From Escherichia phage mEp332: a stretch of DNA of 46,206 nt. The stretch's first letter is position 1, and every line of letters starts with the position of its first letter. The notes beneath the pieces were generated by a model. It saw only the letters and a list, made by a program, of their open reading frames with translations. It did no database searches and was not told the origin of the DNA. The stretch is from sequence record PV340541; one strand, 5' to 3'. This document shows, in pieces, positions 15,358-16,455 of this stretch. The translations under genes were made by a program, and so were the position numbers.

Positions 15358-16455
15358 TTAGAACTGGTAAACCAGACCTACAGCAACGATGTCATCAGTG
15401 CTTACACTGAGTGCTTTAGTGAAGTCATTTTTGTCAAGCAGGTTGATTTTGTAATCAACGAAAGTAGACATATTTTTGTTGAAGTAATAGGTTGCACCTA
15501 CATCAACATATTTGACTAAGTCCTGATCGCCCCATACTCCAAGATCCTTACCTTTAGATTGCAGGTAAGCAACGGACGGACGCAGACCGAAATCGAACTG
15601 ATATTGTGCAACAGCTTCGAAGTTTTGGGCTTTATTAGCAACGAAGTGATCAGCAAATACAGTCATATTCTGGGTTTCAGAATAGGTAGTGGCCAGGTAA
15701 ATGTTGTTAGCGTCATATTTCAGACCTGCGGCCCAAACTTCTGCATTTTTACCGGAAGCAAATACTTCAGGAAGAACTTTCCCTGCATTAACTTGAGTGT
15801 CGGTACGATCAGATTTCGCATAAGTTGCACCGATACCGAATCCTTCGTATTCATAGGTAGCAGAGAAACCGAAGCCATCACCGTTACCTTCAGTGTAGTT
15901 ATCGAAATCGCTACGATCGTTTTTGCCTTGGTACTGAGCAGCAAAGTTCAGACCATCAACCAGACCAAAGAAGTCGTTGTTACGATAGGTTGCAACACCA
16001 GTTGCACGTTGAGTCATGAACACGTCGGTTTGAGTCCAAGTGTCACCACCGAATTCTGGCAGGACGTCAGTCCACGCGCCGATGTCGTATGCTACACCGT
16101 AGTTACGGCCGTAATCGATGGAGCCGTAGTCACCGAATTTCAGGCCAGCGAAGGCAAGACGGGTTTTATCTTTGGAGGAACCTTGAGATTCAGCGCGGTT
16201 GCCTTTGAATTCATATTCCCACTGACCGAAACCAGTCAGTTGATCGTTGATTTGGGTTTCACCTTTGAAGCCAAGACGGGCATAAGTAGTATCACCATCA
16301 TCTGCATCATTAGAGGAGAAGTAGTGCTTAGCATTAACTTTCCCGTACAGATCCAGCTTGTTACTGTCTTTATTATAAATTTCAGCTGCCTGAGCAGACA
16401 TCGCCATCAGTACTGATGCAGCTACAGCAGAAATTGCCACTGTTAATTTTTTCAT
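15358..16455 (-). CDS. OmpC/OmpF-family general porin (365 aa; Lc/NmpC-type prophage porin)
   Basis: Signal peptide [24 protein letters not shown]-terminal aromatic residue (…VGLVYQF), strong resemblance to enterobacterial trimeric porins; located between Q and the holin as nmpC is in DLP12. Confidence 0.93.

Follow-up and report, generated by a model that had tools for sequence, protein, structure and literature searches.

An intact Lc/NmpC-type porin cassette of Escherichia phage mEp332 lies between Q and the probable late promoter pR'

In the genome of Escherichia phage mEp332 (sequence record PV340541), a gene for an outer membrane porin is found between the antiterminator gene Q and the lysis genes S, R and Rz, on the strand opposite to both. 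This raises the question whether the porin gene must be crossed in antisense by the Q-dependent late transcripts, as a preliminary description of this DNA had claimed, or whether it stands apart from the late operon. We analysed the complete stretch of 46,206 nucleotides (further called the window), and the searches for repeat occurrences of the pR' sequences covered all of it. The results make it highly probable that the porin belongs to a self-contained and intact minus-strand Lc/NmpC cassette, which is situated between Q and the late promoter pR' and is left uncrossed by late transcription. The Lc/NmpC conversion porin itself has been known since the 1970s-80s; only two points reach beyond the textbook, namely that the cassette is probably placed upstream of pR' and that cargo recurs between Q and pR' within this Q family, and both may well be familiar to specialists.

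The porin gene is an ATG-started open reading frame (ORF) of 365 amino acids on the minus strand (15358..16455, span including the stop codon), in which the signal peptide is encoded at 16387-16455 and the mature protein at 15361-16386. Gene identity, intactness and anatomy are computed results, as is the homology of the pR' block discussed below. The positions of the ORFs and of the Pfam matches agree in placing the gene between Q and S/R/Rz on the opposite strand, and its earlier description as a full porin of the OmpC/OmpF family was borne out: the protein covers the Pfam profile PF00267 (Porin_1) from position 1 to 337 of 337 (E=2e-156; 521 bits against a cut-off of 23.7) and reaches 528.8 bits with the NCBIfam OmpC subfamily model NF007841, for which the curated cut-off is 484, while it scores below the cut-offs of the OmpF and PhoE equivalogs of NCBIfam. 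The nearest solved structures are OmpC, Omp36 and OmpK36 (E ~1e-137), and because these align end to end with the protein, it very likely folds as a 16-stranded trimeric beta-barrel diffusion pore. In the translation, a signal peptide of 23 residues ending AQA/AEIYNK can be read, and a signal peptide of 23 amino acids is annotated in the 99%-identical Lc record. The loop-3 sequence VLPEFGGDT (motif PEFGGD), the conserved basic pore residues, TQRATG and a C-terminus ...VGLVYQF with an aromatic last residue are present as well. Both the full-length profile match and the combination of signal peptide, C-terminal aromatic residue and loop-3 motif by which general porins are recognised are thus found in this protein.

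The preliminary description had also compared the arrangement to that of Lc in phage PA-2 and nmpC in prophage DLP12, and this likeness extends to the proteins, with identities of 99% and 99.7%, respectively. Because 364/365 residues agree with K-12 NmpC and 360/365 with PA-2 Lc, the porin is, as judged from its sequence, the long-known Lc/NmpC lysogenic-conversion porin of lambdoid coliphages, in the form of an intact allele of an already known gene. The near identity to both proteins goes together with a location on the opposite strand between Q and S21-type lysis genes, which is the hallmark of the Lc/NmpC cassette. The gene could have been inactivated, as it is elsewhere, but the ORF is without insertion or frameshift, and the IS5 target TTAG at codon 346 (15416..15419), which is filled by IS5 in DLP12 of K-12 and in phage 434B, is unoccupied in the window. 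The exact protein is encoded by 375 public contigs; the 90% cluster to which it belongs goes under the names 'outer membrane porin protein LC' and 'NmpC'.

Two long ORFs run antisense over the porin gene, one of 285 amino acids at 15559-16416 and one of 69 amino acids at 15310-15519 (both on the plus strand), the latter being 'ORF1' of the PA-2 record; both are most likely shadow ORFs of the porin frame rather than genes. A comparison of the porin with the 92% identical allele of phage Perceval (fetched locus L014, 2258-3340, minus strand) showed that the differences are collected in short blocks, 2 small indels among them, the remainder being almost invariant. If these blocks are surface loops, such a pattern would point to diversifying selection.

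On the minus strand, the porin stop codon is followed by a 3' untranslated region (UTR) of five hairpins (15191..15357), which has the same place and length as the 167-nt small RNA (sRNA) IpeX of DLP12. This region has a minimum free energy of -62.9 kcal/mol compared to -32.6 in shuffled sequences (z=-8.2; 0/200 shuffles as stable). It is almost invariant across DLP12, PA-2, Perceval and ev243, although the porin of Perceval is only 92% identical, and the surrounding stretch 15100-15357 shows 93-99.6% identity in 35 phage records. Where the 3' UTR differs from that of DLP12 and PA-2, the changes sit in hairpin loops or turn a G-U pair into an A-U pair. The last hairpin of the fold is the intrinsic terminator of the porin/IpeX transcript (15192..15219, minus strand; GGGGCGU-UGCA-ACGCCCC then AUUUUUAAUA), recovered by the terminator scan as a hairpin at 15219-15202 with 7 pairs, 6 of them G-C. 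The porin had been credited with a terminator of its own, and a strong one does exist, but it does not directly follow the gene, being located ~140 nt beyond the porin stop, and the match of the intervening region to a published sRNA had been missed.

Like IpeX, the region is ~167 nt long when measured from the porin stop codon up to where the U-run of the terminator ends. According to the published work on DLP12 (PMC12197685), IpeX is a 167-nt RNA that is made from the phage porin promoter, is processed out of the porin transcript and represses host OmpC; it also appears, by secondary citation, in lists of ompC regulators. Because of the near identity to DLP12 and the shared anatomy, 15191-15357 corresponds by sequence to the IpeX sRNA, and we infer that processing and OmpC repression would take place in mEp332 lysogens too.

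The same DNA has a second structure on the other strand. At 15286..15349, two tandem hairpins followed by CUUUUUCG can be formed in plus-strand RNA (-36.2 kcal/mol, z=-6.8) by the DNA whose minus-strand transcript provides hairpins 1-2 of the porin 3' UTR. They were missed by the simple terminator scan because of a 1-nt bulge, and they should constitute a candidate terminator for unmodified transcription leaving Q.

Upstream of the porin, an AT-rich region of ~370 bp with 29-32% GC (16456..16822, minus strand) serves as the presumed 5' regulatory region that holds the promoter PnmpC. It is 90-99% identical to that of phage relatives and contains a CRP-like site, TGTGAAGTAGATCTCT (16565-16580; score 8/10), at the place where the PA-2 record annotates one. 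For the porin, the promoter scan of the minus strand yielded no sigma-70 consensus promoter, and PnmpC is placed here by two things only, this CRP-like site and a deletion experiment in K-12, in which a promoter with activity in the prophage was lost on removal of -199 to -1 of nmpC (PMC11677980). The same study reports that the K-12 nmpC promoter drives the transposase gene of the IS5 element inserted in nmpC. By analogy with this promoter activity in the K-12 prophage, expression of the porin from the mEp332 prophage is plausible.

This has to be weighed against the possibility that the porin is a quiescent passenger, that is, intact yet barely expressed in lysogens, as reported for nmpC of laboratory strains, and without phenotype. 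The interrupted copies point in this direction (IS5 in K-12 and 434B, IS1 in a derivative of E. coli B), as do reference titles in which nmpC is called a quiescent porin gene. The copy in the window, however, lacks any insertion or frameshift, its promoter region is conserved among phage relatives to the extent given above, and the K-12 promoter is active enough for expression of the downstream IS5 transposase (PMC11677980). Moreover, the clustered differences between alleles, if they are located in surface loops, would fit selection on an exposed and expressed protein. The 99%-identical Lc allele owes its very name to lysogenic conversion. Taken together, we consider a silent porin very improbable.

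Whether late transcription crosses the cassette depends on the position of pR'. When the intergenic region between porin and S was used as a query, a stretch of 83 bp (16823-16905) matched hundreds of Shiga toxin (Stx) phages at the 3' edge of Q, and the counterpart of this stretch in phage 933W is annotated as pR' (-35/-10), qut and first hairpin. In the window, the pR' candidate (16823..16859, plus strand) has a -35 element TTTACG (16824-16829) and a -10 element TATGCT (16846-16851), separated by a spacer of 16 nt that contains CGTAAAAA; from these elements we infer a transcription start at 16856-16858. A conserved initial transcribed block, TAAGAGTGGTTACTTCGTCACACAG, is located at 16854-16878 on the plus strand, and the terminator scan found a tR' candidate ending at 16913 on the same strand, which reads AAACCCGC-CGUCGA-GCGGGUUU then UUCCAUUUUU as RNA (as DNA, AAACCCGC-CGTCGA-GCGGGTTT then TTCCATTTTT). 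Promoter and start block each occur once in the 46-kb window, with 0 expected by chance. The whole homologue (16823-16913) is situated after the porin and ~110 bp before S, the start lying ~170 nt before S. The claim that Q-dependent late transcripts must cross the porin in antisense was accordingly not upheld, as the sole homologue of the 933W unit of pR', qut and hairpin (16823-16905) is found beyond the porin.

The Q protein of mEp332 is of the type that goes with this promoter. Its gene (14785..15168, plus strand) belongs to the QuuD/Q933 family (Pfam PF06530, E=6e-54), and the product is 98% identical to K-12 QuuD and 77-78% to Q of 933W. The pR' block is present in 362 phage records and this Q family in 415, which is comparable; the co-occurrence of both was checked in the fetched loci. 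The spacer CGTAAAAA goes with Q proteins that are 78-85% identical, and a different spacer with Q proteins that are 49% identical; that the spacer follows the Q subtype is as predicted if a Q-binding element is located there. All parts of a Q933/QuuD module, being a PF06530 Q, the -35/spacer/-10 arrangement, a start block beginning TAAGAGTGGTTAC... and a GC hairpin, are found in the window, the pairing of Q and promoter being by homology.

An experimental anchor for the start is available in phages of E. coli Sakai, for which differential RNA sequencing (dRNA-seq) and Term-seq placed pR' 258 nt upstream of the 3' end of tR' (PMC7547250). The published coordinates of the Sakai start site fall inside Q in the current RefSeq version, and the distance of 258 nt was used instead. 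Counted back from the 933W terminator, it ends in TAAGAG, 5-7 nt past the annotated -10, and for this reason the annotated 933W promoter is consistent with the spacing measured in Sakai. A Q-dependent late start at ~16856-16858, after the porin, is thus the most likely one for mEp332 when the homology is followed.

The homology breakpoints lead to the same map. Compared with the porin-less relatives 933W, POCJ13 and PhiR55_1, the window is homologous through Q up to 15117-15144 and then again from 16823 onwards. The cassette would consequently span ~15145-16822 and include the last ~8 codons of Q, the IpeX region, the porin and its promoter region, and these breakpoints place it upstream of pR', with the conserved ...LEMD of Q on one side and the -35 element of pR' on the other. 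Flanking repeats that would be a sign of transposition or insertion were looked for around the cassette and none were found. Cargo of the late operon is located downstream of pR'/tR' within the Q-antiterminated transcript; the porin is not, and by its position the cassette most likely falls outside the late operon.

Several observations weigh against this reading. The pR' start was transferred from Stx phages at 77% DNA identity over 83 bp. In 933W and Sakai, the 258-nt RNA passes the first hairpin and reaches a second terminator, and no second terminator was found before S in the window; for these reasons, the efficiency of the tR' candidate is uncertain. Another promoter has been described for the lysis cassette of DLP12 as well: with the primers given in PMC7918800, the reported RpoE-dependent start maps to ~16504 on the plus strand, ~50 bp from the porin start codon and divergent from it. 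This start is likewise downstream of the porin ORF, and transcripts from it would cross the pR' region and its hairpin before S. Right after Q, there is a weak sigma-70-like match at 15165-15194 (9/12). As to the sRNA part of the cassette, Rfam, searched over the whole window at gathering thresholds and over 15100-17100 at E<=5, gave no match in the IpeX region, and a covariation analysis of the 3' UTR returned 0 compensatory pairs, the five homologues varying too little; the support for its structure is for that reason thermodynamic. The Rfam searches gave no match for the short pR' RNA either. The weak matches to TarB, AniS and Trp_leader that they did list are far under the thresholds and were set aside as chance, and svsR, a prophage sRNA of NC-SV, was rejected as a relative of the short RNAs since it lies at cI and is unrelated.

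The alternative layout would have a lambda-like pR' directly after Q, from which late transcripts run ~1.9 kb in antisense through the porin to S and silence it on induction. This is the canonical layout of lambda, the promoter-like match at 15165-15194 and the plus-strand hairpin/U-run at 15308-15349 could mimic a pR'-tR' pair, and phage Lambda_ev066 indicates that such layouts exist, its related Q being followed at once by a pair that resembles promoter and terminator and, after this, by a lipocalin gene on the minus strand. Nevertheless, we consider it very improbable for mEp332, as sites scoring 9/12 occur 3 times in the region against a shuffle mean of 6.0, nothing in 15169-15357 resembles the start/qut block (which occurs once, at 16823-16905), 15169-15357 is complementary to the conserved 3' UTR of the porin, and the homology breakpoints put the entire cassette upstream of pR'. 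Lambda_ev066 is of interest on its own account: in this phage (fetched locus L008, 2978-3659) the Q DNA is 94.6% identical up to the last codons, then a different promoter-like sequence and a plus-strand terminator adjoin, and the minus-strand lipocalin gene (Blc) is next after the terminator, so that it may be a real case of antisense cargo within a late transcript.

With the cassette between Q and pR' as the preferred reading, the following course of events can be proposed. In the lysogen, the minus-strand unit would be driven by the promoter that it carries itself; the porin made would be inserted in the outer membrane, while IpeX, processed out of that transcript, would bring down the OmpC level of the host. 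The set of surface porins would change by this, and hence permeability and the availability of receptors. The cassette would be best viewed as consisting of two parts, porin and IpeX sRNA, which jointly replace the host porins. On induction, unmodified early transcription from pR would stop at the hairpin/U-run at 15286-15349, whereas N-antiterminated pR transcripts could cross the porin in antisense at delayed-early times; such read-through is possible because a lambda-type N is present. Q-modified polymerase would begin past the porin and leave it behind on the way into S/R/Rz. Because the cassette lies between Q and pR', any antisense transcription across the porin would have to be N-antiterminated early read-through from pR. 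This would correct the transcription map: should induction switch the porin off, the cause would be N-dependent early read-through or an effect at the host level rather than Q-dependent late transcription, a point that is relevant for reading strand-specific RNA-seq data of induced lysogens and for annotating pR' in many DLP12-like prophages.

The interval between Q and pR' is occupied in other phages as well. The pR' block adjoins Q in 933W and PhiR49_2, and other cargo parts the two in five phages, being one uncharacterised minus-strand ORF in PhiR55_1, two uncharacterised minus-strand ORFs in the cdtI phage, a transposase and two uncharacterised minus-strand ORFs in SfIV, a plus-strand GIY-YIG nuclease in phiP27 and one plus-strand ORF in POCJ13 (spans in the fetched loci, in this order: L005 990-1436(-), L013 1512-2900(-), L012 1036-2955, L007 239-1468(+) and L009 3113-3706(+)). 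We tentatively suggest, as a possibility that at present seems rather unlikely to hold in general, that in QuuD/Q933-type phages the interval from the end of Q (...LEMD) to the -35 element of pR' is a recurrent cargo slot outside the late operon. If so, minus-strand cargo in this slot would be expressed in the lysogen and be spared Q-driven antisense transcription, and the cargo would separate Q from its promoter by up to ~2.5 kb, against the textbook view of their adjacency. As a corollary, the short pR' RNA of DLP12-type prophages (~50-57 nt; 16856-16913 in the window), which are carried by a sizeable fraction of E. coli genomes, could be made constitutively as a small RNA like StxS.

Downstream of pR', the lysis cassette (17026..18196, plus strand) consists of the pinholin gene S (17026-17241; S21-type holin, Pfam PF04971), the endolysin gene R (17241-17738; lysozyme, Pfam PF00959), Rz (17735-18196; Pfam PF03245) and Rz1 (17955-18137), a layout matching essD-rrrD-rzpD/rzoD of K-12. 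R is of the signal-anchor-release (SAR) type by its N-terminus, a label that was given on reading this N-terminus and on the 434B record, in which the homologous DLP12-derived gene is annotated as a SAR endolysin. A second cargo gene, encoding the Bor lipoprotein (18228..18521, minus strand; Pfam PF06291), follows at the same place as borD in K-12.

Taken in its entirety, the window holds a complete lambdoid genome arranged in prophage order, with integrase, lambda-type N, cI, cII, O/P and the nin region, the genes for terminase, head and tail, as well as J, lom and the side tail fibres. Lom (Ail/Lom family) is encoded at 38313-38915 on the plus strand and brings the outer membrane cargo genes of this genome, together with the porin and Bor, to 3. 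Between N and cI, at the position of rexA/rexB in lambda, lies an ORF of 374 amino acids (8036-9160, minus strand) without a match in Pfam or PADLOC, which matches only phrog_6191 of unknown function and could be an uncharacterised exclusion or defence gene. Two Rfam families exceed their gathering scores: the lambda cIII thermoregulator element (88.5 bits; 5644-5702, minus strand) and IS009 (227 bits; 42719-42917, plus strand), the latter within an ORF (42376-42957) that comes after the side tail fibre gene. The C-terminal 250 amino acids of J, compared with the phage collection, have phage 21 (61%) and lambda (53%) as closest characterised relatives; both are too distant, and an inference on the receptor was set aside. 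OmpC as a receptor, if true of mEp332, would make the porin replacement self-serving.

Among known systems, DLP12 (qsr') of K-12 is the closest. Apart from IS5, the DNA of 15150-17030 is 99.2% identical to it, and with IS5 removed the NmpC protein is identical at 364/365 positions, the sole difference being S350G. The order quuD, nmpC (minus strand), essD, rrrD, rzpD/rzoD and borD (minus strand), the 3' UTR and the pR' block are the same, and in DLP12, too, IpeX directly follows the porin stop codon, with ~167 nt of near-identical sequence. The difference lies in the state of the element: nmpC of K-12 is broken by IS5 after codon 346 in a prophage that is a defective remnant, whereas mEp332 has an intact copy within a complete set of lambdoid genes, from integrase to tail fibres. 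Phage 434B, which took this segment from the cryptic prophage DLP12 of K-12 (PMC9119081), is 99.3% identical from Q to S, and in 35 phage records at least 80% of this stretch is covered. Of 5426 complete E. coli genomes, 2465 contain 80% or more of the stretch comprising the Q end, the porin and the start of S.

Lc of phage PA-2 is the prototype of the lysogenic-conversion porins. The PA-2 protein (protein 2, GenBank J02580) is identical at 360/365 positions and has the same flanks, including 3' UTR and pR' block; some of the five amino acid differences are perhaps sequence errors of 1986. In the PA-2 record of that year, the start block of pR' is labelled as a CRP site (L004 1730-1750, corresponding to ~16858-16878 of the window). 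A role in the late promoter is likelier for this block than regulation of the porin by CRP, because it is conserved next to Q in phages that lack the porin.

The stx genes of 933W and Sakai share with the porin a Q of the same family (78%), a homologous pR', start region and first hairpin, and a position between Q and S. In contrast to the porin, stx follows pR'/tR' in the same orientation and is made late, dependent on Q, while the porin is upstream of pR', on the opposite strand and served by a promoter of its own. OmpD of Salmonella and the chromosomal porins of the OmpC subfamily, finally, belong to the same Pfam family and the same NCBIfam OmpC subfamily. Phage records label homologues of the porin OmpD, and nmpC has been described as an E. 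coli gene similar to ompD (PMC3333887). These relatives are, however, core chromosomal genes, whereas the porin of mEp332 is phage-borne and carries the IpeX 3' UTR.

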